A stretch of 27,498 nucleotides of DNA from Solirubrobacterales bacterium (lineage in GTDB: Bacteria > Actinomycetota > Thermoleophilia > Solirubrobacterales > 70-9), in NCBI GenBank assembly GCA_036279555.1, contig DASUIY010000059.1, positions 1-27,498 on the forward strand. Direction: 5' to 3'. This document shows, in pieces, positions 3,305-27,498 of the stretch. Under the pieces are notes generated by a model. It did not search any database. It worked only from the letters and a program-made list of their open reading frames with translations, and was not told the origin of the DNA. Position 1 is the first letter of the stretch. Every line of letters begins with the position of its first letter. Position numbers and translations under genes: made by a program.

Positions 3305-4306
3305 GTGACGCGGGCAGACGTGTGCGCGGCGATCCTCTGGACGGGGGCGACCCTCTACGCGGTCTTCGGCGGCGCCGACTTCGGCGCCGGCTTCTGGGAC
3401 CTGATCGCGGGCGGCGCGGAGAAGGGGAAGCGCCCGCGGGCGCTGATCGAGCGCTCGCTGACGCCGGTCTGGGAGGCCAACCACGTCTGGCTGATCTTCA
3501 TCCTCGTGGTCCTCTGGACCGCTTTCCCGGAGGCCTTCGGCGCGATCATGTCGACGCTTTACGTGCCGCTCACCCTGGCAGCCTTCGGCATCGTCCTGCG
3601 CGGCGCCGGCTTCGCCTTCCGCGAGTCGATCCGCTCCGTGGAGGCGCAACGGGCGCTGGGCGCCACCTTTGCCATCTCCTCCGTACTCACCCCGTTCTTC
3701 ATGGGCACCGTGGTCGGCGCGATCGCCGACGGCAACGTCCCCGCCGCGGGGAACGGCGACGCCTTCTCCAGCTGGCTGCAGCCGCTGCCGCTGCTCACCG
3801 GCGGCATGTTCGTCGCCAGCGGCGCCTATCTCGCTGCGGTCTTCCTCGTCGCTGACGCGCGCCGCTCGGGCAGCGCCGAGCTCGAGGGCTACTTCTCCCG
3901 ACGCGCTCTTGCGGCGGCCGTCTTCGCGGGGGCGTTCGCCGTTGTCGGCCTCTTCGTCCTCCACGCCGACAGCCGCTACGTCTTCGACCGGCTCGTCGAC
4001 CAGGCCCTGCCGCTGGTCGTCGTCTCCGGCCTCTGCGGCCTCGCCGTGCTGGTCATGCTGCTGCGCGGCACCCGCCGCGGGCTGCGCCCCCTCGCGGTCG
4101 GGGCCTTCGTCACCGTGATCTGGGGCTGGGGCGCCGCCCAGTTCCCCTACCTGCTGCCGACCTCGCTGAAGATCTCCGAGTCCGCCGCGCCTCCGGAGAC
4201 GCTGGGCGCGGTGATCGTCGTCTTCCTCGTCGCCGCGGTCGTCGTCCTGCCGGCCCTCGGCCTGCTCTACTGGCTCTCGCAGAAGGAGCTGCTGAGTGGC
4301 GAGTGA
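3305..4306 (+). CDS. cydB: Cytochrome bd ubiquinol oxidase subunit II
   Basis: 333 aa hydrophobic protein with GADFGAG, PVWEANHVWLI, LRGAGFAFR and QFPYLLP motifs, directly after cydA. Confidence 0.93.
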   Translation: MTRADVCAAILWTGATLYAVFGGADFGAGFWDLIAGGAEKGKRPRALIERSLTPVWEANHVWLIFILVVLWTAFPEAFGAIMSTLYVPLTLAAFGIVLRGAGFAFRESIRSVEAQRALGATFAISSVLTPFFMGTVVGAIADGNVPAAGNGDAFSSWLQPLPLLTGGMFVASGAYLAAVFLVADARRSGSAELEGYFSRRALAAAVFAGAFAVVGLFVLHADSRYVFDRLVDQALPLVVVSGLCGLAVLVMLLRGTRRGLRPLAVGAFVTVIWGWGAAQFPYLLPTSLKISESAAPPETLGAVIVVFLVAAVVVLPALGLLYWLSQKELLSGE

Positions 4307-4979
4307 GCCCAGTGCGGTCCGCGCCGTGCTCTTCGACATCGACGGGACGCTGCTCGTGACCGGCGGCGCCGGCGGCCGCGCCTGGCAGCGCGCCTTCGCG
4401 GAACTGCACGGAGTCGATGCCGACATCGCCGAGCACACCGACGCCGGGATGACCGACCCCGAGATCGCCGCGATCGTCTTCCGCGAGGTGATCGGCCGCG
4501 AGGGCAGCCAGGAAGAGCGCGCGAAGGCGATCGGCTCCTACCTCAAGCACCTGCCGGACACCGTCGCCGAGTCTGAGGGCTATCGGGTCATGCCCGGCAT
4601 CGAGGAGCTGCTCGACCGCCTGATCGACGACGGGCTCCTGCTCGGCCTGGTCACCGGCAACATCGAGGCCGCCGCCCACATCAAGCTCGCCCGCGCTCAC
4701 CTCAACCGCTTCTTCAGCTTCGGCGGTTACGGCTCCGATTCTGCCGACCGCACCGAGGTCACCAAGACGGCCTTGCAGCGCGGCGCCCTGGTCTCCGGCG
4801 GCACCCTCGCCGACGGCATCTGCATCGCCGTCGGCGACACCCCCCGCGACGTCAAGGCCGGCCACGGCGCCGGGATCAAGGTCGTCGGCGTGGCAACCGG
4901 CAGCTACTCGGTCGATCAGCTCGAGCAGGCCGGTGCCGACTGGGCGATCGCGGAAGCCCAGGACGGCTTCCCTGTCTAG
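4296..4979 (+). CDS. HAD-superfamily hydrolase (phosphoglycolate phosphatase-like)
   Basis: Motif I FDIDGT, motif II VTGN, motif IV VGDTPRD. Overlaps the end of cydB. Confidence 0.88.
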   Translation: MASEPSAVRAVLFDIDGTLLVTGGAGGRAWQRAFAELHGVDADIAEHTDAGMTDPEIAAIVFREVIGREGSQEERAKAIGSYLKHLPDTVAESEGYRVMPGIEELLDRLIDDGLLLGLVTGNIEAAAHIKLARAHLNRFFSFGGYGSDSADRTEVTKTALQRGALVSGGTLADGICIAVGDTPRDVKAGHGAGIKVVGVATGSYSVDQLEQAGADWAIAEAQDGFPV

Positions 4980-6184
4980 CCGGGCAACGTGCAGCGCGCT
5001 TGGTAAATCGAGAGGAAGCCGGTTTCGAAGCCTCTGCGCGCCATGCGCAGGTACAGACGCCAGACGCGCACCCGTTCCGGCCCGGCGAGCCTGACCGCGT
5101 CGTCGAGGTTCTCGTCCAACCGCCGTGCCCAGTGGCGCAGGGTCTCGGCGTAGTCGGCGCCGAACTCCTCGACGTGGCGGGTGACGAAGCCGGCTCGCTC
5201 CAGCGCCAGGAGCACCCGCGAGAGGTGCAGCGGTTCGGCGTCGGGGAAGACGTAGCGCTCAGAGAACGGCCCCGCCGCGGGGTCGGTGTGGCGGAGGCGG
5301 GCGATGCCGTGGTTGAGCAGCCGCCCGCCCGGCTCCAGCAGCCGCGCCAGGGTCTGCGCGTAGACGTCGATCTGGGCCTCGCCGACGTGCTCGACCATGC
5401 CGATGCTGGAGATCGCGTCGAAGCGCTCGCCGGCCAGGTCGCGGTAGTCCATCACCCGGATCTCGACCCTGTCGGCTACACCCGCGGCCTCGGCCCGCCG
5501 GCGGGCTCGTTCGGCCTGCGGTGGGGAGAGGGTGATGCCGACGACGCTCGCCCCGTGCCGCGTCGCCGCCCAGAGCGGGAAGCTGCCCCAGCCGCAGCCG
5601 ACGTCGAGCACGCGCTCACCCTCCTTCAGCGCCAGCTTGCGGGCGACCATCTCCAGCTTCTCCTCCTGGGCTTCCTCCAGCGTCTCCGCCCCGCGCGAGA
5701 AGATCGCGCAGCTGTAGGTCGTCGAGTCGTCGAGGAAGAGCGAGAAGAACTCGTTGGAGACGTCGTAGTGGTGGCGGACCGCCTCTGCGTCGCGCTCCTT
5801 GCTGTGCCGGCGCCCGCTGGGCCGCAGCTCCGCCGCCGGCCGGCGCGGCGGCCGGCTCAGCCCCGCCGCCCGCACCGTCGCGAGCAGGAGGCGCGCCTTG
5901 TCGGCGCTCTCCAGCGGCGGCGGCTGCCAGTTGTCGAGCAGCTCGATCACGGAGTCGATGTCGTCGACCTCGAGCGCGCCGCTGACGTAGGCGCGGCCGA
6001 GGCCGAGCTGCCCGGGCGCTCGCAGCGCGTGAGCGGCGGCCTTGGGGGAGCGCACGAAGAAGGTGGGCCCGCCTCCGTTCGTCGCCTCCAAACGCGTCCC
6101 GTCCCAGAACTCCACCGAGAACGGTCGCTTGGGAATGCGAGCCTCGATCTCGCGCCGTAGCGGTGCCGTACTGGAGAGCGGCAT
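4976..6184 (-). CDS. cfa: Cyclopropane-fatty-acyl-phospholipid synthase family SAM methyltransferase
   Basis: HYDVSNEFF, TYSCA, VLDVGCGWG, SIGMVEHVG and YVFPD motifs. Start trimmed from the 723-aa ORF to ATG 6184 (MPLSSTAP), because the upstream extension is antisense to the desaturase. Confidence 0.88.
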   Translation of the reverse strand: MPLSSTAPLRREIEARIPKRPFSVEFWDGTRLEATNGGGPTFFVRSPKAAAHALRAPGQLGLGRAYVSGALEVDDIDSVIELLDNWQPPPLESADKARLLLATVRAAGLSRPPRRPAAELRPSGRRHSKERDAEAVRHHYDVSNEFFSLFLDDSTTYSCAIFSRGAETLEEAQEEKLEMVARKLALKEGERVLDVGCGWGSFPLWAATRHGASVVGITLSPPQAERARRRAEAAGVADRVEIRVMDYRDLAGERFDAISSIGMVEHVGEAQIDVYAQTLARLLEPGGRLLNHGIARLRHTDPAAGPFSERYVFPDAEPLHLSRVLLALERAGFVTRHVEEFGADYAETLRHWARRLDENLDDAVRLAGPERVRVWRLYLRMARRGFETGFLSIYQARCTLPG

Positions 6185-6211
6185 GCCCGAAGCATATGAT
6201 CGGTAGAGCCG

Positions 6212-7141
6212 ATGGCAAGTAGTGGACCCCTCCCATCCGATATCCAGCCGGTCGCCAACGAGACCCGCGACCGCATCATCACCGGCCTGGTGACGCTGGT
6301 CCCGTTCGTCGCGATCGGGCTTGCGGCCTGGCAGGTCTGGGGCCAGGCCCTGCACTGGAGCGACGTCTTCCTCTTCCTCGGGATGTACTTCTTCACCGGG
6401 ATCGGGATAACGGTCGGCTTCCATCGCCACCTCACCCACCGCAGCTTCAAGACGACGAAATGGATGCACGGCCTGCTGGGGATCCTCGGGTCGGCGGCGA
6501 TCGAGGGCCCGGTGATCTCCTGGGTCGCCGACCATCGCAAGCACCACGCCTTCTCCGACGAAGAGGGGGACCCGCACAGCCCCCACGTCGATCATGGCCA
6601 GGGCTGGTCGGGCGCGATGCGCGGCCTCTTCCACGCCCACATGGGCTGGCTCTTCATCCACACCCAGCGCGGCAACAAGGAACGGTTCGCGCCCGACCTG
6701 ATCGAGGACCCGGTGATCAGCTGGGTCGACCGCACCTTTCTGCTCTGGGCGATCGGCGGGCTCCTCCTGCCCTTCGCGCTGGGCTGGGTCATCGGCGGCA
6801 CCCTCTTCGCCGCCTTCACCGGCCTGCTCTGGGGTGGCCTGGTCCGCGTCTTCGTCCTGCACCACTTCACCTACAGCATCAACTCGCTCTGCCATGTCTT
6901 CGGCAAGCGCGACTACGAGACGAGCGACGAGTCGCGCAACCTGGCGCTGATCGCGATCCCGACCTTCGGCGAGGCCTGGCACAACAACCACCACGCCTTC
7001 CCGACCTCCGCCACCCACGGCCTCGGCCGCTGGCAGGTGGACGTCTCGGCGATCGTGATCGACAGCCTCGAGCGCGTCGGCCTCGCCTGGGACGTCGTGC
7101 GAGTGTCCCCCGAGCGTCTCGAAGCCAAGATCGCGGCTTAG
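6212..7141 (+). CDS. Acyl-CoA (delta-9-type) fatty acid desaturase
   Basis: Three His boxes: GFHRHLTH, DHRKHH and WHNNHH, plus TM segments. Confidence 0.93.
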   Translation: MASSGPLPSDIQPVANETRDRIITGLVTLVPFVAIGLAAWQVWGQALHWSDVFLFLGMYFFTGIGITVGFHRHLTHRSFKTTKWMHGLLGILGSAAIEGPVISWVADHRKHHAFSDEEGDPHSPHVDHGQGWSGAMRGLFHAHMGWLFIHTQRGNKERFAPDLIEDPVISWVDRTFLLWAIGGLLLPFALGWVIGGTLFAAFTGLLWGGLVRVFVLHHFTYSINSLCHVFGKRDYETSDESRNLALIAIPTFGEAWHNNHHAFPTSATHGLGRWQVDVSAIVIDSLERVGLAWDVVRVSPERLEAKIAA

Positions 7142-7253
7142 GGCCAATCCCGGCAGGGGTTCCGCTTAACTTTTTCGAAAGGCGGCGACTGCTGGCGCTC
7201 GAACCGCGCTCGCGGAAAAGTACAAGACGCTCCACCCCTGCCGGGATTGGCCT
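7141..7253. mobile_element. MITE-like element, 113 bp, 19-bp perfect terminal inverted repeats, TTA on both sides
   Basis: GGCCAATCCCGGCAGGGGT (7142-7160) is the exact reverse complement of 7234-7252. TTA at 7138-7140 and 7254-7256. No ORF inside. Confidence 0.65.
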
Positions 7254-9659
7254 TTACGGTGCTTCTTCTGCCTCGTACCAGTCGACCCAGCCGTTGCAGG
7301 ATTTGCTTAGCGGGACGATCCGGTGCGGCCGGTCGGGGGTCGCGACCAGCTCGCCCAGGGTCGCCTTGCCCGAGTACCCGGTGAGGCGCTGCAGCGTGCT
7401 CGGCTCATCGGCCGTGACGGTGAACCGGACCGCCCCGCCGTCGCTGCGGATCTTCCCGGCGGGCCAGAACTGGCCGTTGCTGGCGAGGCTGATCGTGGTC
7501 GGCCGCTGACCGTCCTGGGCGGCCTTCAGCGGCTGTCGCAGGCCCGGGGCGGAGAGGGTCAGGCCGAAGGGCGAGAAGTACTGCAGCGAGAGGAGCCAGT
7601 CTCCGGCCGGGAGGGCGAGGGCCTGCGATGCGCTCTCGCCGGTCTCCAGCTCCGGTTCGGGGCTCCAGCGCCCCTTGCCGCCGATCGCGGCACCGGGGAA
7701 GAGCGAGGCGCGACCGGGGTTGGCGGTGAGTATCTGCAGCTCGGGAGCTGTGCAATCGGCGTGTGCCGCCGGCTCGGTCCCCTCCAGCAGCACGTGGCGG
7801 TCGGCCGGCAACGGCCCCGTTCTCTTCCAGAGAAGGTATGAGGGCGTCGCCGCGACGCGCCTGAAGCCCCGCGGCGCTTCGCTGTTCCAGGCCGCCCGCC
7901 CGGTGATCACGTAGGGGAAGCGCGCGAGGGTGGCCTGGGAGAAGGAGTCGAAGTCGATCGGGCTGTAGGCGTCGCCGGTGTCGAACGGCTTCTCGGGGCT
8001 GGCGGTGACCTCGGCGTCGGGGAACTCGACCAGCGGCACGTGCGTGTCGGCCCCCATCAGCTCGTGGGCGGCGTAGCGGTCCTGACCCGCGTATAGGACA
8101 GGCTCCCCCTGGACGACGGGCATGAACGCCTGCAGCTCCGCGCCGTGCCCCGGCGGCCCGACCGGCGCGTCCCGCAGCACGAGCAGGCTCGAGTACACGG
8201 CCCCCGCCACGAACGCCACCGCCAGCACCCCCCAGCCAACCCTCGCCACCCCCGCCGATGGGCCGATTCCGGCCGATATTCGGCCGGAATCGGCCCATCG
8301 GCGGCCAAAGGCGCCGCCGAGCTCGAAAAGGAGGGGGCGGATCGCGACGAGCATCGCCAGCGGGGCGGCGATCATCAGCGCCTTGGCCTGGGAGTACTCA
8401 CCACTGGTGGCGAGTGAGGCGAGATAGAGGATCGTGCAGGCAGCGAGCGCGACCGGGATGGAGAACTCCCGTCGTCGCAGCCACCAGGCGGTTCCCAGGA
8501 CGACGGCGAGCACCCCGATCGCGCCCGCCAGGCCGGTCAGGTGTGCGCCTCCGGCCGCGCTGAGCCGGTAGTTGGAGGCCGGCCAGACGCCGAGCGCCTC
8601 CAGCGGCGAGACCGGCCCGTAGGTGTTGGTGCCGGCGACGCGGTTGAAGCCGTGGACGAAGGCGAAGGGCCCGACCAGCATCAGCGTCACCGTCAGGCCG
8701 CCGAGCACGACGATCGCCAGCAGCAGCTTCGGCCGCAGCAGGGTGCGGGCCAGCCGGGCCGGCCTCAGCTCGGCACGGATCTCGGGCACGGTCGCCGCCC
8801 AGAAGACGAGGATCGCAACCGGCCAGGCAAGCCCGGCGAAGCTGTAGGAGAAGAAGATCCCCCCGGCGAGCGCCAGCGGCACCAGCACCCACCACCACCC
8901 CGCCGACGGGCCGATTCCGGTCCATATTCGACCGGAATCGGCCCGTCGGCGGTCGAGGTCGAAGAGGTAGACGGCGAAGGCGAGGACGAAGAGGGCCTCG
9001 GCGGTCTCCTTGAAGGTGCCCTGGGCGTAGTAGGAGGCGCCGAGGTAGGTGATCGCCACCAGCGTCGCGGCTGCCACCCGGCGGCCGGGCCCGAGGTCGC
9101 CGAGGGCCACGAGCGCGGTCAGCGCGGTCAGCACCCCTATCGCCAGGATCTCTCCGACGAATGCCTGGCCGAGGCCGATGCCCGGCAGCACGGCGACCGT
9201 GTCGGCGAGCGCGTGGGGCCCAAGCGGATAGCCCGCTTCCGGCGTCGGGCCGAGGCCGCTGCGCAGCCACTCGGCCCAGGCCAGGTGCAGCCCGAGGTCG
9301 TTGTTGAAGCCGACGCCCAGCAGCCCCCAGCGCCCGCTGATCGCAAAGGGGATCGAGAGGACCAGGGCGACGACGAAGGCGACGAGGATGCCCAGCCAGA
9401 TCGAGCCCTCGGTGCGTCCGGGGCGCCGCCAGAGCACCAGCGCCGCCACGGCGACCAGGGCGGTCGCGCCCAGCGCCGCGCTGGTCGCGTGCCCCGGGGC
9501 CCGGGCGAGGAAGCCCGTGACCGTGATCATCGCCCCGAAGCCGACCGCAGGCGCCAGCCAGCTGCGCGAGCCGCCCTCCCCCGCGAGGCTGAGGATTGCG
9601 CGTCCCACCAGCATGGAGGCGGCGCAGATCAGCGCCGCCGCGACGTAGGTCCCGATCAT
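7254..9659 (-). CDS. Polytopic membrane protein with C-terminal extracytoplasmic domain (possibly GT-C-like glycosyltransferase; function uncertain)
   Basis: 801 aa with about 12-14 hydrophobic segments, an early NNDLGLH loop and a soluble C-terminal region. The GT-C call rests on topology only. Confidence 0.75.
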   Translation of the reverse strand: MIGTYVAAALICAASMLVGRAILSLAGEGGSRSWLAPAVGFGAMITVTGFLARAPGHATSAALGATALVAVAALVLWRRPGRTEGSIWLGILVAFVVALVLSIPFAISGRWGLLGVGFNNDLGLHLAWAEWLRSGLGPTPEAGYPLGPHALADTVAVLPGIGLGQAFVGEILAIGVLTALTALVALGDLGPGRRVAAATLVAITYLGASYYAQGTFKETAEALFVLAFAVYLFDLDRRRADSGRIWTGIGPSAGWWWVLVPLALAGGIFFSYSFAGLAWPVAILVFWAATVPEIRAELRPARLARTLLRPKLLLAIVVLGGLTVTLMLVGPFAFVHGFNRVAGTNTYGPVSPLEALGVWPASNYRLSAAGGAHLTGLAGAIGVLAVVLGTAWWLRRREFSIPVALAACTILYLASLATSGEYSQAKALMIAAPLAMLVAIRPLLFELGGAFGRRWADSGRISAGIGPSAGVARVGWGVLAVAFVAGAVYSSLLVLRDAPVGPPGHGAELQAFMPVVQGEPVLYAGQDRYAAHELMGADTHVPLVEFPDAEVTASPEKPFDTGDAYSPIDFDSFSQATLARFPYVITGRAAWNSEAPRGFRRVAATPSYLLWKRTGPLPADRHVLLEGTEPAAHADCTAPELQILTANPGRASLFPGAAIGGKGRWSPEPELETGESASQALALPAGDWLLSLQYFSPFGLTLSAPGLRQPLKAAQDGQRPTTISLASNGQFWPAGKIRSDGGAVRFTVTADEPSTLQRLTGYSGKATLGELVATPDRPHRIVPLSKSCNGWVDWYEAEEAP
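8252..8304. repeat. Palindromic element, family 1, in-frame coding copy 1
   Basis: Perfect 25-bp stem (8252-8276/8280-8304) with a TAT loop. Encodes RRWADSGRISAGIGPSA on the minus strand. Confidence 0.95.
8900..8952. repeat. Palindromic element, family 1, in-frame coding copy 2
   Basis: Perfect 23-bp arms (8900-8922/8930-8952), centre CATATTC. Encodes RRRADSGRIWTGIGPSA on the minus strand. Confidence 0.95.
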
Positions 9660-11189: not shown

Positions 11190-12533
11190 CTAAGTCGCTG
11201 GCTCCGTAGCTTTTGAGGCGTCGATCAGGCCGGCGCCCTGGCGCGTCGCGGGCAGGCCGAGGTCGCGGGCGGTCTGCCGCAGGCGTCTCGTCACCGCCCC
11301 GACCCTCCCCTTCTTCTTCGCCTTGCGGTCGATGACGCCGCTGGCGAGGACCATCGCGGCGACCCCGGAGACGTGGGCTGCGGCCATCGAGGTGCCCGCG
11401 TAGTTGCCCGGCTCGCTGAATTCGTCGGTGGTGCGGTCCTTCAGCGTGACCTGGTAGATCGCGTCGGCCGAGACCGAGGGGCAGCCGATCGCCGGAATGC
11501 CTCCTCCGGGCGCGAGCACGTCGACTCCCTTGCCGGCCAGCGAGTAGCTGCCGATGCAGCCGCCCTGGGTGCTGCCGCCGACGCCGATTGCGTGCGGCCC
11601 GGTGGAGGGAGGGGAGACGCAAGCCTCCGAGCCGGCGTTCCCCACCGATGCCACCGTGACGATGCCGCGCTGGTAGGCCTGGCGCAGGGCCTCGTCGACT
11701 CCGGGCACCTGCCTGCCGCAGCCGAAGTTGAAGCTCATGTTGATCACGTCGGCCCCGCGCGCGACGGCGAACCGGATGCCCTTGGCGATGTTGTCCGCTC
11801 TGCCCCGGCCGAACCGGTCGAGGACGCGCACGGGCATCAGCTTCGCCCGGAAGGCGAGCCCCGTGAGGCCGATGCCGTTGTTGGTCTTCTCGGCGATGGT
11901 GCCGGCAACGTGGGTGCCGTGGCCGTTTTCGTCGAGGGGCAGGTGGTCGTCGTCGACGAAGTCATAGCCCTTGGCGAACTGGCCGGGGGCGAAGTCGGGG
12001 CTGCGCAGGAAGCGTGGCGACAGCGTCCGGTAGGCGATCCCGGTGTCGAGGACAGCGACGGTGACGCCCTGCGCACCGGGGCGCCCGGCGGCCGCCAGGT
12101 TTTCCCAGGCGCCGATCGCGTCGATGCCCCCGGGGGAGACCGGCAGCAGGGGAGTCGGTTCCCCCTGCCAGGGCAGGAAGTTCCACTGTTTCGAGACCCA
12201 CCCGCCGGGCGGTCCGGGGACGCCGGTGATCGGGCCGGGGTCGTTGGGGACCAGGGGTTCGGCGGCGGCGGTCGCCGAGGCCGTGGCGATGTAGTTGGGC
12301 GACGCGTACTCGACTCGCGGGTTGGCGCGCAGCGCCGTGACCACCGCGCTCACGTCGGCGCCCGGCCTCAGGCCGAAGGTGCCCGCCTCGTGGCCGGCGA
12401 GCTTGAGGATCACCTGGCGGGGCACGAACCCGTGGGCCGGGGCGAGGCCGGTGGTCGCCCGGGCGGGCGCGCCGGCGAGGACGAGCGACGCGAGCAGGGT
12501 CACGGAGGCGGCAATCGGAAGGCGTCGGTTCAT
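11190..12533 (-). CDS. Secreted subtilisin-like S8 serine peptidase
   Basis: Signal peptide and the catalytic triad motifs VLDTG, HGTHVAG and GTSMA. Confidence 0.93.
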   Translation of the reverse strand: MNRRLPIAASVTLLASLVLAGAPARATTGLAPAHGFVPRQVILKLAGHEAGTFGLRPGADVSAVVTALRANPRVEYASPNYIATASATAAAEPLVPNDPGPITGVPGPPGGWVSKQWNFLPWQGEPTPLLPVSPGGIDAIGAWENLAAAGRPGAQGVTVAVLDTGIAYRTLSPRFLRSPDFAPGQFAKGYDFVDDDHLPLDENGHGTHVAGTIAEKTNNGIGLTGLAFRAKLMPVRVLDRFGRGRADNIAKGIRFAVARGADVINMSFNFGCGRQVPGVDEALRQAYQRGIVTVASVGNAGSEACVSPPSTGPHAIGVGGSTQGGCIGSYSLAGKGVDVLAPGGGIPAIGCPSVSADAIYQVTLKDRTTDEFSEPGNYAGTSMAAAHVSGVAAMVLASGVIDRKAKKKGRVGAVTRRLRQTARDLGLPATRQGAGLIDASKATEPAT

Positions 12534-13446: not shown

Positions 13447-15894
13447 ATGGCTAGGGAGACGCGCAGGGTAGAGTCGCCAGGGCTGGACGCGCACGGCAGT
13501 TCGCCGAGGGGCTGGGCGGCCGCGTTCGTCCTGCTGACGTTGGCCTCAGTAGCGCTGGCCCACTCTTCGGTCAGCCAGGCAGTCGAAGGGGTCACTCTAA
13601 GAGCGGACGCGAAGGGGGCGGACAACGATCTGATCGCCAGCGTGTTCGTCGGCACCTCCGCCGGGCGGATCTGCGCCGGCACGGTGCGCCACGCGGGCAA
13701 GCAGATTCGCCTGCCCGAACTGCAAACCGGCAAAAGCGGCAACGCCCGCTGGCGCTGGAAGATCGGCGCGGGCGTGCCGGCCGGACGGTGGGAGGTGTCG
13801 GTCCGCTGCCAGCTGGCGAACGGGCCGGCGACCGAGCACACGAGCTTCAAGGCGTCGGGAACCGGTCGGCGCGGCGACAGCAACCTCGTCGCACCCGGCT
13901 CAATGACCAAGAAGTCGCTGCACCACGCCAAAGGTTCGAAGGGCGGGCGAGGCGGCGGAGAAGAAGAAGAAAACGGCTATCCCAAAGGCCTGTGCACGTG
14001 GTGGGCTAGGTTGAAGAGACCCGACATCCCCGTCTTCCCGGGGCCAGCGGGGGATGCGCGCAACTGGGCCGAGAGCGCCCGGCGCGCGAAACCGAGGTTC
14101 TCGCTCGGCACGGTGGCGAAGCCGGGAGCGATCGTCGTCTTTCAGCCGGGCCAGGCGGGCGCCGGCAGGTTCGGGCATGTCGCCTACGTCGAGCGCGTCA
14201 ACGCCTCCGAGATGACCATCTCGGAGGCGAACTTCCGCAATACCAAACCAGGACACGAAAGGCCGATGCGCTGGCGCGGCCGGGGCTTCGACTTCATCTA
14301 CGCGAGGGAGGAGCGGATAGTGGATCCGCCGGCTCCGCCGAACAGCCAGCGCTTCCGCGTCTACCGGACCTGCGCGAACGGGAAGTGTGGGTTGCCGCAG
14401 CGTCAGGGCCCCGGCCTGAGCTTCGGCACCGTCGGCAGGCCGCTGCCCGACGATAGCGCGGTCGACGTCGTCTGCCAGACGCGAGGTGACCGCGTGTCCG
14501 GCTTTGACGCCACCTCGACCAACGTCTGGGACCGGCTCGCCAACGGGGCCCACGTCTCCGACTACTTCGTCGACACCCCCGGCAAGAACGACCAGTTCTC
14601 GGTCCAGATCCCGAGCTGTGCCTCGCTGGGCGCCGCCGCGGAGGTTGAGATCCCGCACGTCGCGACGGTCGCCTTGAGCGTTCCCGGCAACGGGCAGGTC
14701 CTGAGTGGGGACGTGGCGGTGCGGGCGTCCTCCGACGCGCCGGAAGTGCGCTTCGAAGCCTTCTATTCGGATACGCCTGGAGTAGAGGGAACGGCTCGCT
14801 GGCATCCGCTCGGCGTCGACAGCAATCCCGGCGACGGCTTCGAGCTGAGCTGGGACACCACCGCCGTGCCGAACCAGGGCCTGCGCCGAGAAGGGACCGT
14901 GCGGGTGTCCGCGACCGCGGTCGACGCCGCTACGGCCGTTGCCGACAGGCAGGACTTCAGGCACGTGGCTATCGCCAATGCCGATCCGGCTGGCGACTTC
15001 GCCTACCACGTCTTCGGGACCTGCCTCGACGCCCTCTGCACGCTGAAACGGCGTGCCGGCCCGGGCTTCTCCAAATACCCGCCGATCGATTCCGTCGCCG
15101 AGGGCGCGACGGTGAAAATCGCCTGCCAGGCCGCCGGTGAGACCGTCAGCGGCGGCGTCGGGACGAGCAACGTCTGGAACCAGCTGGACGACGAAAGCTG
15201 GGTCGCCGATCTATATATCGACACCCCCATCGCGGGCAGCTTCAGCCCGCCGATCCCCCGCTGCGCGACCGTCCCGCCCCCTCCCACGCCGACCATTGCC
15301 CTGACGGCGCCGGCAAGCGGCGGGATGGTCAGCGGAACGGTCGAGGTCGCGGCGACCTCCGACGCGCCGGGGGTGCGGTTCGAAGCGTTCTACTCGGACA
15401 CGCCCGGCGTAAGCGGGACGGCCCTGTGGCGCCAGCTCGGCGACGATCTCTCGCCCGGCGACGGCTTCGAGCTGAGCTGGGACACCACCGCCGTGCCGAA
15501 CCAGGGGCAGGCGAGCCAGAGCACCGTTCGGGTGCGCACGGTTGCGCTCGACTACCAGGGGGGCGCGACCGGCGTTCAGGAGGTGGGCCGGGTGAACGTG
15601 TCCAACCCGAGCCCCGACGGCAGCTACGCCTACCACGTATACGGCACCTGTGGCAGCGACGCCTGCTTCGTCAACGTGCGCAGCGGTCCGAGCCAGACGA
15701 CCTACCCGGTTATCTACACGAAGGACGAGGGTGAGCGGCTCGACATCGCCTGCCAGGCGCACGGGCAGAGCGTCTCCAATGGCGTCATCAGCTCGGACAT
15801 CTGGAACAAACTGATCGACGGCGGCTGGGTGACCGACTTGTACGTGGACACTCCGGTCGCGGGCGACTTCAGCCCGCCGATTCCCCAATGTTGA
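13447..15894 (+). CDS. Exported CHAP-domain peptidoglycan hydrolase with three SH3b-like and two Ig-like repeats
   Basis: N-terminal hydrophobic segment. CHAP Cys/His motifs YPKGLCTWWA, FGHVAYVE and SEAN. Three copies of (F/Y)xVxxTC...CQxxG...WxxLxxxxxVxDxxxDTP alternate with two SGxVxVxAxSDAPxVRFEAFYSD...WDTTAVPNQG domains. Confidence 0.8.
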   Translation: MARETRRVESPGLDAHGSSPRGWAAAFVLLTLASVALAHSSVSQAVEGVTLRADAKGADNDLIASVFVGTSAGRICAGTVRHAGKQIRLPELQTGKSGNARWRWKIGAGVPAGRWEVSVRCQLANGPATEHTSFKASGTGRRGDSNLVAPGSMTKKSLHHAKGSKGGRGGGEEEENGYPKGLCTWWARLKRPDIPVFPGPAGDARNWAESARRAKPRFSLGTVAKPGAIVVFQPGQAGAGRFGHVAYVERVNASEMTISEANFRNTKPGHERPMRWRGRGFDFIYAREERIVDPPAPPNSQRFRVYRTCANGKCGLPQRQGPGLSFGTVGRPLPDDSAVDVVCQTRGDRVSGFDATSTNVWDRLANGAHVSDYFVDTPGKNDQFSVQIPSCASLGAAAEVEIPHVATVALSVPGNGQVLSGDVAVRASSDAPEVRFEAFYSDTPGVEGTARWHPLGVDSNPGDGFELSWDTTAVPNQGLRREGTVRVSATAVDAATAVADRQDFRHVAIANADPAGDFAYHVFGTCLDALCTLKRRAGPGFSKYPPIDSVAEGATVKIACQAAGETVSGGVGTSNVWNQLDDESWVADLYIDTPIAGSFSPPIPRCATVPPPPTPTIALTAPASGGMVSGTVEVAATSDAPGVRFEAFYSDTPGVSGTALWRQLGDDLSPGDGFELSWDTTAVPNQGQASQSTVRVRTVALDYQGGATGVQEVGRVNVSNPSPDGSYAYHVYGTCGSDACFVNVRSGPSQTTYPVIYTKDEGERLDIACQAHGQSVSNGVISSDIWNKLIDGGWVTDLYVDTPVAGDFSPPIPQC
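14827..15506 (+). repeat. Exact 53-bp direct repeat within the CHAP gene (14827-14879 and 15454-15506)
   Basis: CCCGGCGACGGCTTCGAGCTGAGCTGGGACACCACCGCCGTGCCGAACCAGGG occurs twice, 627 bp (209 codons) apart. Confidence 0.9.
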
Positions 15895-24187: not shown

Positions 24188-25330
24188 GTGGACTTCGCTC
24201 TGACCGATGAGCAGGAGGACTTCGTCGATGCGATCCGGCGCTACTGCGACCACGAGTGCGGCACGCCGGACCAGCGCGAGCGTCTGACCGACGGTTACCG
24301 CGAGCACCACAACGAGACGATCTACAGGGAGATGGCCGAGCTCGGCTGGACCGGGATCACGATCCCGGAGGAGTACGGCGGCTCCGGCGGGACGATGCTC
24401 GACGCCTGCATCTTCATGGAGGAGACCTCGCGCGCGCTGGCGCCGATCGGCGGCTACGCGACGACGCTGATCGTCGCCGGCGCCGCCAACCGCTTCGGCA
24501 CCGAGGAGCAGAAGCAGGAGATCCTCGGCGGCATCGCCGAGGGCGCGGTCGAGGCGATCGCGATGACCGAGCCCGAGGCCGGCTCCGACGTCGGCGCCCT
24601 CTCCACCTCAGCCGAGGCGGTCGACGGCGGCTACGTCATCAACGGGCAGAAGGTCTTCTGCTCCAACGCCCACATCGCCGAGCACGTCCTCGTCGTCTGC
24701 CGCACCACCCGCTCCGCCTCCAAGCACGACGGCATGACGATGATCTGGGTGCCCCGCGACGCCGAAGGGCTCGAGGTGGTCCCGATCGACACGATGGGCG
24801 GCCGCGACACCAACCACCTGTACTTCACCGACGTCGAGGCGCCCGCCGACGCGGTCCTCGGCCAGGTCGACCAGGCCTGGGCCCAGCTGATGGCCGGCCT
24901 CAACGTCGAGCGGCTGATCCTCTCCGCCACCCAGCTCGGCATCGCCCAGCGCGTCTTCGACGACGTCATCGTCTACGTCAAGGAAAGGGAGCAGTTCGGC
25001 AAGCCGATCGGCTCCTTCCAGGCGCTTCAGCACCGCATCGCCGACATGGCGACCGACATCGAGGCGGCCCGCCTGATGACCCGCTGGGTCGCCACCCTCG
25101 TCGACGAGGGCCCGGACAAGATGCTGCCCCGCGAGGCCTCGATGGTGAAGCTCTTCGTCACCGAGGCCGCCAGGCGCGCGGCTCTCAGCGGCATGCAGAT
25201 GATGGGCGGCTACGGCTACGCCTCCGAGTACGACATGGAGCGCCTCGTCCGCAGCACCCTGGTCTCGACCATCTACGGCGGCACCTCCGAGATCCAGCGC
25301 AACATCATCGCCAAGACGTTCGGGCTCTGA
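24188..25330 (+). CDS. Acyl-CoA dehydrogenase
   Basis: IPEEYGGSG, AMTEPEAGSD, INGQKVF, REQFGKPIGSFQALQH, GGYGY and IYGGTSEIQRNIIA motifs. Confidence 0.95.
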   Translation: MDFALTDEQEDFVDAIRRYCDHECGTPDQRERLTDGYREHHNETIYREMAELGWTGITIPEEYGGSGGTMLDACIFMEETSRALAPIGGYATTLIVAGAANRFGTEEQKQEILGGIAEGAVEAIAMTEPEAGSDVGALSTSAEAVDGGYVINGQKVFCSNAHIAEHVLVVCRTTRSASKHDGMTMIWVPRDAEGLEVVPIDTMGGRDTNHLYFTDVEAPADAVLGQVDQAWAQLMAGLNVERLILSATQLGIAQRVFDDVIVYVKEREQFGKPIGSFQALQHRIADMATDIEAARLMTRWVATLVDEGPDKMLPREASMVKLFVTEAARRAALSGMQMMGGYGYASEYDMERLVRSTLVSTIYGGTSEIQRNIIAKTFGL

Positions 25331-25362: not shown

Positions 25363-25458
25363 GCGCCCGTAGCTCAGTGGTCAACGGGGTTTTAACGAGC
25401 CCCAAAGAGCGCCGGTCTTTCAAGCCGGAGGTCGAGAGTTCGATTCTCTCCGGGCGCA
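25363..25458 (+). tRNA. Atypical tRNA, anticodon TTC (nominally Glu), with a hairpin inserted in the D-loop
   Basis: Acceptor GCGCCCG/CGGGCGC, D-stem GCTC/GAGC, anticodon arm CCGGT-CTTTCAA-GCCGG, variable AGGTC, T-arm GAGAG-TTCGATT-CTCTC, A73. There are 25 nt between G19 and A21. Confidence 0.8.
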
Positions 25459-25645
25459 TCCCGATGCACGCCGGTCTGTGCAGCTTTGTGCTGCAAAGCG
25501 GCACTGTCAGGGACTTTCCCGCTCAGAATGGTTCCGCCGGGCGCAGGCCTCTGCCGGGGCTTGCCGTCGGCTGAGTGCTACATCGCTGCTACGTTTTTCG
25601 GCCTCGCGGGGGTGGCGGCGGAGGCCTCTCGCACGTGTATGTGGC

Positions 25646-25852
25646 ATGAGGCCGACCGATGCAGGCCACCGCGCCTGGTTCACGCCAGAGAGCCTGGCGA
25701 GCCACCTGCAGGTCTCAGAGCGCATGGTGCGCAAGTGGGTCGCGCAGGGGCGCCTTCGCTCTTACAAGCTCGACGGCTGCCGTCGCTTCGACCCCGCCGA
25801 TGTCGACGCCTTCGTCGCCCAGTTCCGCGACGAGCGGGGGAGGGGACGGTGA
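25646..25852 (+). CDS. Excisionase-like helix-turn-helix DNA-binding protein
   Basis: 68 aa, FTPESLASHLQVSERMVRKWVAQGRLRSYKLDGCRRFDPADVDAF, typical of the HTH_17/Xis family. GTGA overlap with the integrase. Confidence 0.82.
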   Translation: MRPTDAGHRAWFTPESLASHLQVSERMVRKWVAQGRLRSYKLDGCRRFDPADVDAFVAQFRDERGRGR

Positions 25853-27050
25853 GTCGCACAGCCGCCGCCGGCAGACCGCCGCGCCAGACTCCCTACAGGC
25901 GCGTCTACACGAACGGCAGGGTGGTTTGGATCGCGCGCTACCGGGACTTCGACGGCAAGATGCGCTACGCCAAGCCGCGCTGGAACGGCGGCAAGTCCTC
26001 CTTCGCCCTCAAGGGCGATGCTCAGCGGGCGATCGACGAGGCGCTCAACCGCCTCCACGGCGGCGTTGCGATGCCCGAGAGGATCGGCGGGTACTTCGAG
26101 CGCTGGCTACAGCACCACCCGCGCTCCGAGCGCACTGACAAGACGAACTCCGACCGTGTCTCCTACGTGCTCGACGTCGAGATCGACGGGCGGGCGCTCC
26201 GGGACTGGGAGTTCGACGAGCTCCGTCGTCGACAGGTCCTCGCCCTGCTCGATCACATGCTCCGGGTCGAAGGCCGTGCCGCGGAAGGCGCCCGCGGCAT
26301 CCTCAGCGTGCTTTCCGCGATGGCCGAGGACGCGATCGGCGACGAGGCGGCGACCCAGAACGCCTTCATCGGGATTCGCCTGCGCCGCAACGACCCACGG
26401 AGCAGGAAGCCGCCGAGGAAGATCCGGATCTGGAGCTTCGAGCAGATGCGGGTGTTTGCGGCTGGAGGGAGGCCCGAGATGCGCGCCGCGACCCCGCGCC
26501 CGCCCGATCCCCGCACCAAGGGCCGCTACAAGTCGAAAGCGCGCTTCTACCCGCCCCACGACTACGAGGCTCTGCTCCTGACTCCAGGCTTCACCGGCCT
26601 GCGCCTGGGCGAGTTCCTCGCCCTGGAAAGGCCCGGATACGACGGCCACTCCTTCCGCTTCGAGTTCTCCGCCCACGAAGGCAAGCTGGTCGGCTCAAGC
26701 GACCAGAAGAACCACGAGCGCACCGTCCCGGTGCCGCCGACCCTGGCCGAGCTGATCGACCGCCGCCCGCCACGCATCGACACCCCGATCTCCTCTTCCC
26801 GACGCCACGCGGCAAGCTCTGGCGCGAGCGCAACTTCTACCGCGAGGTCTGGGTCCCGGCCCAACTCGCGACCGGCCTCGACCCCACCCCGCACGAGTTC
26901 CGCCACTCCTACGTCACGCACCTCGTCGCCGCCGGCGTCGACCGAGCCGACCTCGCCAAGGTCGCCGGCCACACTGTCGAGACGATGATCTCCGTCTACA
27001 CCCACGCCCTCGACCGCAGCCATGATCAGATCAGGGAGATCATCGGGTAG
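25849..27050 (+). pseudogene. Tyrosine recombinase/integrase with a frameshift at about 26788-26790
   Basis: Frame 1 gives the N-terminal and core domains and TGLRLGE. After ...IDTP the C-terminus continues in another frame: LLFPTPRGKLW...HEFRHSY...AGHT..MISVYTH...* (stop 27048-27050). Confidence 0.82.
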
Positions 27051-27110
27051 CGCCAGGGGGACTCTAACTTTGGTTATGGCGGCGCCATCCTCGTTTCGAT
27101 CTCCGCTCGC

Positions 27111-27498
27111 CTAGGCTGGCAGACTCTCGCCCAGCCCCAGCTGCTCCGACTCGCGTTTCACCTGCCGCTCCCGGTCTCGCGCCCACTCCTCGGTTGCCAC
27201 GCTGCAATCATCCGCATCGCGACTGAAGCGGACACGCACAACCGATTTCGGCCAGCCGTCGACGCTCGCCAGTTCCTCACCCAACATCGCCGCCACTTGC
27301 TCATTGTGGGTGGCGATTACCACCTGCTCTGGCCGCAGCAGCCGCGTGAACGCGCGCAGCGTGCTGGCGAAGCCGGCAGTGTTGGCGTTGTCGAAGCCCG
27401 CCGTCGGATCGTCCATTACCAGCACCTTCCGGCGCTCGGGCGGCTGCAGCATGTGCAGCGCGCAGAACCAGGACAACCCCAGCACCGTGCGCTCTGCC
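27111..27498 (-). CDS. Rad50/SbcC-like ABC ATPase, C-terminal fragment (5' part outside window)
   Basis: AERTVLGLSWF post-signature helix, Walker B/D-loop VLVMDDPTAGFD, H-loop IATHN. Confidence 0.72.
   Translation of the reverse strand, partial: AERTVLGLSWFCALHMLQPPERRKVLVMDDPTAGFDNANTAGFASTLRAFTRLLRPEQVVIATHNEQVAAMLGEELASVDGWPKSVVRVRFSRDADDCSVATEEWARDRERQVKRESEQLGLGESLPA

Follow-up and report, generated by a model that had tools for sequence, protein, structure and literature searches.

To our knowledge, a D-loop of 7-11 nt and a four-armed cloverleaf hold for essentially all cytosolic elongator tRNAs, and the variable arm of class II is the sole accepted extra arm in tRNAs. The gene described here, a five-armed tRNA(UUC) gene of 96 nt, departs from both rules. 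It lies on contig DASUIY010000059.1 of a Solirubrobacterales bacterium (assembly GCA_036279555.1), of which positions 1 to 27,498, the whole stretch of DNA that was analyzed, are called the window below, and it carries an additional helix within the D-loop together with a UUC anticodon on a body of the Arg/Lys type. We consider it probable that this gene encodes a working GAA decoder of an uncultured Solirubrobacteraceae clade, presumably charged with glutamate. What is new is the location of the fifth arm, together with the replacement of the identity set; the closest parallel in print, the D-arm intron of archaea, is removed by splicing, and neither full-text literature searches nor a review of non-canonical tRNAs returned a published description of a bacterial D-loop arm.

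The fifth arm and its conservation

The Rfam model RF00005 aligned over its whole length (model positions 1-71) to positions 25363-25458 (+) of the window with 66.2 bits (E 1.5e-12; threshold 29), and the alignment places a 25-nt insert between the GGU and the GAGC of the D-arm. Its stem (GCUC/GAGC) consists of the pairs G10:C25, C11:G24, U12:A23 and C13:G22, the conserved tertiary nucleotides are all there (U8, A14, G18 G19, T54 T55 C56, A58, and U33 in a 7-nt anticodon loop), and the hairpin at 25386-25403 is present in both the minimum-energy and the centroid folds (z = -2.95). Alignment and folds agree to the base with a preliminary description made from the letters of the window, which had given the same coordinates, 25-nt insert, hairpin and TTC anticodon. 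The D-loop has 31 nt, including the 18-nt hairpin, rather than the 7-11 nt of a four-armed cloverleaf. Nor does the molecule belong to class II, since the extra arm stands between positions 20 and 21, with none between 44 and 48, and the variable loop is 5 nt long (AGGUC). ARAGORN miscalled the window gene as tRNA-Ala(AGC), reading the hairpin as the anticodon arm, and called its relatives Thr, Asp, Pro or "undetermined", with no call whatever at one locus; because of such miscalls, carrier genomes appear to be without a GAA reader.

Within the same GTDB genus, 34 of 36 genomes have full-length 96-nt homologues (79-100% identity), and a sample of the family had the tRNA in 30 of 201 genomes, belonging to 8 of 58 genera. 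A scan of the GTDB species genomes returned at least 120 loci, and 119 of the 120 listed are the five-armed tRNA; the 80 titles shown among these 120 are all soil metagenome-assembled genomes (MAGs) assigned to Solirubrobacterales, Solirubrobacteraceae, Conexibacteraceae, Thermoleophilia or uncultured Actinomycetes. In total, the gene occurs in more than 120 Solirubrobacterales species. Elsewhere in the phylum, 400 genomes gave no match to the five-armed pattern. On the tree of glutamyl-tRNA synthetase (GluRS), the carriers cluster together with G123, a genome in which a look-alike of the 3' half only, and no 5' half, was seen, and the sister lineage of this cluster (G084 and G113) is without the five-armed tRNA; a single carrier cluster beside a sister lineage without this tRNA makes one origin compatible with the data. 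Two variants of the design were also seen. A second five-armed gene of 95 nt (L042; G035:C1:873286-873380; 47.9 bits against RF00005), which occurs in a single genome, has a different hairpin, the anticodon loop CCUUCGA (UUC, with C33) and discriminator G, and the same five-armed scaffold carries the anticodon ACC on MAG contig DATBYJ010000132.1 (L148).

Nearly all of the distinct sequences gathered, 22 from the genus and family genomes and 36 from the GTDB species-genome scan, are 96 nt long, and the arm has 18 nt in nearly every copy. In a covariation alignment of 17 distinct homologues, 100% of the cells of the hairpin helix hold standard pairs, with compensatory changes at 5 of the 7 pairs; for the structure as a whole, 0 of 500 shuffles equaled the observed covariation, and sliding the partner strand abolished the signal. 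Covariation of the hairpin in related genomes, which the preliminary description had proposed as a check, was thus found. The loop alternates among the tetraloop families UMAC (UAAC/UCAC), GNRA (GCAA/GUAA) and UNCG (UUCG/UACG). When host and phage copies are aligned together (n=18), columns 8-19, 21-23 and 43-48 are identical throughout and the acceptor, anticodon and T stems vary; that is, the D-stem, G18 G19 U and both linkers are unvarying, the exceptions being the first base of NAAC and a GAA 3' linker in one phage. Judging from these comparisons of sequence, the arm is under selection for pairing and length.

Alternatively, it is possible that the hairpin is a neutral passenger, i.e., an old insertion in the solvent-exposed D-loop that is tolerated while it stays compact and has no identity or functional role. 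Swaps of the loop between unrelated stable tetraloop families fit this possibility, because a loop that switches so freely is apparently not read; so does the finding of no matching change in GluRS or EF-Tu, and so does the location, since the D-loop varies naturally at positions 20/20a/20b. However, the 18-nt length is fixed in nearly all copies, the NAAC and AAA linkers hold steady in host and phage copies alike whereas all other stems vary, the entire architecture is preserved by phages, whose genomes retain only what is of use, and no hairpin-free derivative was encountered among the more than 150 genes collected. An origin from a mobile palindrome was also rejected: with its flanks the hairpin occurs once in the genome of the window (G000), with up to 5 mismatches allowed, and belongs to no repeat family there. 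We regard a purely passive hairpin as rather unlikely and favor the reading of the gene as a working GAA decoder with a functional arm.

Evidence at the RNA level bears on whether the insert stays in the molecule. All sampled 31-mers of the gene are held by 12 runs recorded as RNA, and the 20 holding runs span 13 studies. Record 17 of run X13 (depth 179) reads from Illumina adapter through tRNA positions 12-96, insert included and with 0 mismatches, into CCA and adapter again. Since the genome reads TCC 3' of the discriminator, and CCA is encoded in 0 of 160 homologous genes, the CCA was added post-transcriptionally to hairpin-bearing RNA; the 3' CCA end of a mature tRNA was thus observed, in one study. 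The X13 contig starts exactly at window position 25374 (tRNA position 12), adjoining the adapter, which may reflect either arrest of reverse transcription by a base modification near positions 9-11 or else a stable fragment. Runs X1 and X9, which hold the gene and its upstream flank at depth 2-6 and may represent precursor or DNA, were not used as evidence, and run X10 covers the neighboring acyl-CoA dehydrogenase (ACAD) gene only.

These data speak directly to the bacterial D-loop intron that the preliminary description had considered, in which the 25 nt would be an intervening sequence removed before the tRNA functions. D-arm introns of 20-25 nt do occur in archaeal tRNA genes (bioRxiv 10.64898/2026.10.13.758758), and RNA ligase genes are common in bacteria. 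However, the insert is contained in the CCA-tailed RNA at depth 179, and no joint skipping it was seen in 4 RNA runs, in which contigs can miss rare forms; the splicing endonuclease EndA (PF01974) gave 0 matches in 5 genomes, with 4 archaeal controls positive; there is no bulge-helix-bulge, the insert forming an uninterrupted 7-bp helix with both single-stranded flanks at its same end; and 25 nt is far below group I or group II size. With the insert in CCA-tailed RNA and no joints, EndA or bulge-helix-bulge, we reject the intron reading as exceedingly unlikely. Among the readings offered in the preliminary description, that of a new extra-arm tRNA is supported, with an arm that is conserved with covariation, retained in CCA-tailed RNA and copied by phages (Table 1).

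Table 1. Features of the window, with the basis of each assignment (positions in the window)
Feature	Position	Strand	Basis or remark
Five-armed tRNA(UUC) gene, 96 nt	25363-25458	+	RF00005 full-model match; full-length homologues in the genus
Acceptor stem	25363-25369 / 25451-25457	+	discriminator A at 25458; CCA unencoded
D-arm, entire	25372-25410	+	stem 25372-25375 / 25407-25410 around a 31-nt loop
Surplus over a normal D-loop, 25 nt, G19 to A21	25381-25405	+	Rfam alignment: 25 inserted nt versus 1 model position
5' linker CAAC (NAAC in hosts and phages)	25382-25385	+	alignment positions A21, A22 and C23 unvarying
Extra arm: 7-bp helix 25386-25392 with 25397-25403, tetraloop UAAC 25393-25396	25386-25403	+	GGGGUUU / UAAC / GAGCCCC
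3' linker AA, then A21 (AAA; GAA in one phage)	25404-25406	+	host and phage alignments
Anticodon TTC, reads GAA	25419-25421	+	loop CTTTCAA at 25417-25423
Attachment core, 42-nt 3' part (anticodon loop to discriminator)	25417-25458	+	direct repeats nearby
ACAD gene	24188-25330	+	Pfam Acyl-CoA_dh N, M and C; upstream of the tRNA
Downstream DNA to contig end	25459-27498	.	repeat on C344; far end of island presumably there

GAA, its reader and the charging enzyme

In the complete genome G035, whose five-armed copy is identical to that of the window and for which all tRNAs were enumerated, canonical tRNA-Glu(UUC) is absent from the full tRNA inventory. The tRNA-Glu(CUC) of the inventory is canonical (U11:A24, U13:G22, variable loop of 4 nt), and UUC has one other candidate, the divergent second five-armed gene, which was seen in G035 alone. 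Pattern searches of the complete carriers G028, G163, G111 and G210 returned the five-armed gene only, plus remnants of attachment (att) sites, so that the second tRNA-Glu(TTC) whose existence the preliminary description had wished to see checked does not occur in canonical form in the G035 inventory or in these four pattern-searched genomes. Canonical Glu(UUC) is found in non-carrier genera (G069, G079, G084, G113, G117 and G073, with a partial match in G082, G092 and G103) and in families elsewhere in the order (G040, G041, G044 and G039). A strict pattern for it matched just 10 of 201 family genomes, which was too restrictive, and anticodon/T-loop patterns and full inventories were used instead. 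The genome of the window is an 85%-complete MAG of 403 contigs, and a further Glu tRNA is not in the assembly. Going by gene content, the five-armed tRNA is the only conserved GAA reader in the enumerated genome G035 and has displaced the canonical gene.

Other unusual tRNA genes were met in the course of these searches. A class I-shaped tRNA of 73-74 nt with the anticodon UAA (Leu codon UUA) stands beside the normal long-arm tRNA-Leu(UAA) at L046 (G035:C1:1278989-1279061), at G028:C1:1037740-1037812 and on the phage contig L293 (8365-8438), and is reminiscent of type I tRNA-Leu from Streptomyces coelicolor (PMC6614811). The tRNA-like gene L044 (G035:C1:1044692-1044760, -) scores 40.6 bits, has an 8-nt anticodon loop and is given as undetermined by ARAGORN.

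GAA accounts for 15.4 per 1000 codons and for 22% of Glu codons. Across 13 species, the ACAD gene has GAG as an alternative in 11 of 11 GAA columns and as the sole alternative in 7, and in 271 cytoplasmic-type orthologue pairs of carrier versus non-carrier, GAA aligns with E in 60.7% of cases and GAG in 67.9%. Site-wise conservation of GAA versus GAG between genera gave an odds ratio of 14, which is within the range of ordinary synonymous pairs, and one of 7-8 in pairs including a genome without the five-armed tRNA, with gene calls that include some antisense ORFs in both cases. In cytoplasmic proteins, GAA behaves in these alignments as glutamate, or as something that selection treats as glutamate. 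This bears on the possibility, raised earlier as a mis-charged tRNA, that the gene deliberately mistranslates and places Arg, Lys or Asp at GAA. The non-Glu type of the tRNA body is in line with it, and mistranslating tRNAs (of the tRNA-ProA type) exist in Streptomyces. However, a canonical GAA reader does not coexist with the five-armed tRNA (the G035 inventory and four further complete genomes), GAA makes up 1.5% of all codons, it aligns with E, not with K or R, in cytoplasmic orthologues, and it interchanges with GAG across species. With free swapping of this kind and a single conserved GAA reader, mis-charging in the usual sense is very unlikely indeed.

The body of the tRNA matches Arg(ACG) or Lys(UUU) tRNAs, the closest of which have the same acceptor stem, at 60-62 of 72 positions, versus 49-50 of 72 for canonical Glu tRNAs, and has C11:G24, C13:G22 and a 5-nt variable loop, which bears out the earlier remark that the body is Arg/Lys-like and that E. 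coli Glu determinants are missing. A20 is the main ArgRS determinant, and the hairpin sits at its place. The major determinants of E. coli GluRS are U11:A24, U13:G22:A46, the missing residue 47 and U2:A71 (PMC9976931); the anticodon determinants of the same set, U34 U35 C36 A37, are present in the window copy, and extra D-loop nucleotides are known antideterminants of GatCAB (PMC9976931). There is one PF00749 (GluRS-type) gene per genome, which in G000 stands at 2497-3876 of contig C5, so that the enzyme is presumably non-discriminating; a second GluRS or a GlnRS serving the odd tRNA, which had been considered, is ruled out by the same count. A dedicated EF-Tu paralogue was not found either, each genome having one EF-Tu in a search that left SelB-like factors aside.

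On the reading that we favor, a glutamate-charged GAA decoder, a tRNA gene resembling Arg(ACG) or Lys(UUU) would have been recruited a single time and its anticodon changed to UUC. Glutamate charging would then be achieved, most simply, by the single non-discriminating GluRS via the anticodon nucleotides U34 U35 C36, and the arm with its linkers might serve as an identity or anti-identity element. That is, arm and linkers may compensate for the missing augmented D-helix, or may exclude ArgRS, LysRS and GatCAB.

Codon choice in exported proteins adds a further layer. Ranked by GAA share, the top genes of G000 almost all encode lipoproteins or proteins with a signal peptide. With exported-type proteins defined by a crude signal-peptide rule, pooled GAA/(GAA+GAG) was 0.353 in exported-type versus 0.149 in other proteins of G000 (p 2e-33) and 0.638 versus 0.164 in G111 (p 2e-24), both with the five-armed tRNA, and showed no excess in two genomes with the canonical tRNA, G084 of the sister lineage (0.113 versus 0.140) and G069 (0.120 versus 0.127). 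AAA is up in exported proteins as well, in carriers only; other A-ending codons hardly shift, and G+C at third codon positions (GC3) differs by 0.01-0.02. The exported proteins of carriers are also about 50% richer in GAA/GAG-coded residues (6.0% and 5.6% versus 4.0% and 3.7%). Genes of the window itself give further examples: the CHAP hydrolase at 13447-15894 (+) has 12 GAA to 21 GAG, with AAA raised (9/21), and the exported protein at 11190-12533 (-) has 5 GAA to 7 GAG; among cytoplasmic genes, ACAD has 2 GAA to 32 GAG and the gene at 214-1854 has 2 to 45.

It is important to note that several observations weigh against the reading as a glutamate-charged GAA decoder with a functional arm. 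The five-armed tRNA is without U11:A24, U13:G22:A46 and U2:A71 and has residue 47, and U11:A24 is present in the clade's own Glu(CUC) and Gln tRNAs. GluRS shows no carrier-specific indel or substitution (four biased columns seem common to the sister lineage, going by minority counts not split by genome), and with no clade-specific change the enzyme side does not explain the acceptance of a non-Glu body. In several genera (L118, L122-L128; g26, g29, g37, g43, g44 and g59), the anticodon loop is CUUUCCA, with the pyrimidine C37 at a position that is almost always a purine in tRNAs. Covariation by itself is also in keeping with a tolerated insertion on which compactness is the sole demand, and the CCA evidence consists of contigs of one run that start at position 12, in which the mature 5' end is not seen. 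GAA sites of exported proteins align with E in 22.8% of cases, versus 56.2% for GAG, and the exported GAA excess, limited to the carriers among the genomes examined, is reproducible, unexplained and unpredicted by simple synonymy. Finally, a third PF00152 gene, a paralogue of lysyl-tRNA synthetase (LysRS), is present in all 13 insert-bearing genomes searched besides G000 (9 of 9 carrier family genomes sampled; also G035, G163, G032 and G028), and 30 of the 120 listed loci have it on the tRNA strand, 113-2636 bp upstream.

The latter two points might be connected, in that the class II LysRS paralogue, and not GluRS, could charge the five-armed tRNA with glutamate or another residue, GAA and GAG being then no true synonyms and the difference being exploited by exported proteins. 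The paralogue is present throughout the carriers just named and linked to the tRNA in 18 of the 59 listed loci whose upstream sequence extends for 4.2 kb or more, and on the viral contig L292 a homologue is separated from a D-insert tRNA by 5.4 kb. The enzyme, encoded in G035 for example at 486733-488214, is full length, with the anticodon-binding OB domain included, and would be annotated lysS, but its lysine pocket is altered (Y280F, N424G, F426G and E428D, where the housekeeping enzyme retains the originals). Further, the tRNA body is Lys/Arg-like with A73, and exported proteins are rich in GAA only where the tRNA is present, their GAA sites match E poorly in orthologues, and their E content is raised by about 50%. 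However, the commonest tRNA lineage is unlinked (0 of 22 listed loci), and the paralogue was not found in G000, which is 85% complete. The same altered paralogue occurs in G084, G113, G117 and G073, adjoining canonical tRNA-Glu(UUC) and tRNA-Val; because it is present there, and G084 has no GAA excess, the paralogue is older than the five-armed tRNA and insufficient for the codon effect. In addition, the altered pocket retains acidic residues and does not suggest glutamate binding, GAA of cytoplasmic proteins stands at conserved E positions about as often as GAG, and the odds ratio of 14 lies in the range of ordinary synonymous pairs. We consider a dedicated pair of this kind unlikely, and the LysRS paralogue is, to the same small degree, a candidate charging enzyme. 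A fuller version, in which GAA has its own machinery, strikes us as quite improbable. In it, a five-armed tRNA derived from Lys/Arg would be the sole reader of GAA and would be charged by the class II LysRS paralogue, re-tooled into a class II GluRS or into an enzyme for another residue, and exported proteins would prefer GAA; if true, the glutamate codon box would be split naturally across a whole clade, the adaptor being a tRNA of a third structural class.

Integration site and phage copies

In G021, G013, G036, G023, G002 and other genomes, the 3' part of the gene (query positions 55-96) has repeats 1.4-18 kb away that are 93-100% identical to it, and a copy of these 42 nt stands on the minus strand of contig C344 of G000. 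Because the 3' 42 nt recur as direct repeats, the tRNA gene can be identified as an attachment site; an integrated island, with its other end on C344, probably begins downstream of the gene and runs past the end of the window. No recombinase domain (integrase) was found by Pfam in window 25459-27498 or in the G035 segment, and a weak AbiEii-like AAA match lies at window 27111-27485. The decayed integration target suggested in the preliminary description is therefore a target, with repeats in many genomes and the C344 copy, but not a decayed one, as the gene is conserved and covarying. Partial copies of the tRNA 3' half in G163 (G163:C1:2404348 and 2407791), 8 and 12 kb downstream of the intact gene, suggest tandem integrations at one site. 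The canonical tRNA-Glu(CUC) (G035:C1:1951473-1951545), which is 100% identical in 33 of 36 sampled genus genomes, is also a busy integration site, with its 3' 41 nt copied many times nearby; G000 has four such copies.

A pattern search of IMG/VR matched 12 contigs: 6 carry a true five-armed tRNA(UUC) (L290, L291, L293, L295, L296 and L297), 1 carries the anticodon UGC, and 5 are matches in coding sequence. In the phage copies, the four ordinary stems and the hairpin sequence have diverged, and the D-arm, the linkers and the 7-bp/tetraloop design are kept. The fetched stretches hold 14 (L291), 28 (L293), 4 (L296) and 1 (L290) other tRNA genes, canonical Glu(CUC) being among those of L293 and L296. 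Genes beside the phage tRNAs include ribonucleotide reductase, RNA ligase and queuosine-type genes, with a weak minor-tail match. Retention by phages is independent evidence that the arm helps make the tRNA work in these hosts.

The contig with the UGC anticodon (L292; IMG/VR 3300043787_000063) shows the five-armed scaffold and is the one with the LysRS-paralogue homologue 5.4 kb off. The RNA ligase gene at L291 4918-5640 (+), beside tRNA genes, suggests tRNA repair, and L296 has at 4120-7390 (+) a QueE/QueC/tRNA-guanine-transglycosylase-like cluster that is typical of 7-deazaguanine DNA modification.

Comparison with known systems

If the gene is indeed a working GAA decoder, more than 100 bacterial species, as well as phages, would rely on a tRNA with a fifth arm in the D-loop for a common sense codon, and ribosomes, EF-Tu, RNase P and the CCA-adding enzyme would be shown to tolerate a helix projecting from the variable pocket. 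It would also be a natural case in which a tRNA of one identity type takes over the codon of another amino acid and displaces the canonical gene. Further, the choice of GAA in exported proteins makes the true synonymy of synonymous codons directly testable.

With the canonical tRNA-Glu(UUC), the five-armed tRNA shares the anticodon and its loop CUUUCAA, the presumed codon GAA, G18 G19, TTCGA, G1:C72 and the post-transcriptional CCA; unlike it, the five-armed tRNA is without U11:A24, U13:G22:A46 and U2:A71, and residue 47 and the 18-nt fifth arm are present. Class II tRNAs (Leu, Ser and bacterial Tyr) likewise keep an additional helical arm in the mature tRNA, and their variable arm is an identity element in which shape counts above sequence. 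Here, however, the arm projects from the opposite face of the L, out of the D-loop between positions 20 and 21, and we know of no other place where this codon family is not class I.

The archaeal D-arm introns (Thermoproteales, Asgard archaea) resemble the present case in being insertions of about 20-25 nt that are left in the "mature" tRNA or miscalled by annotators. However, EndA cuts those at a bulge-helix-bulge, whereas the host here is a bacterium in which EndA was not found and the motif is absent.

Two other systems offer partial likenesses. An unusual D-arm shape is also found in tRNA-Sec, whose 6-bp D-stem and 4-nt D-loop are read as structure by partner proteins (PMC7609411), but that tRNA serves rare recoding with its own elongation factor, as opposed to an ordinary sense codon and one EF-Tu gene here. 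Finally, alloacceptor remolding and the type I tRNA-Leu of Streptomyces (PMC6614811) show, again in actinobacteria, how one tRNA type can take the codons of another; no new arm is involved there, however, and type I and type II tRNA-Leu coexist.

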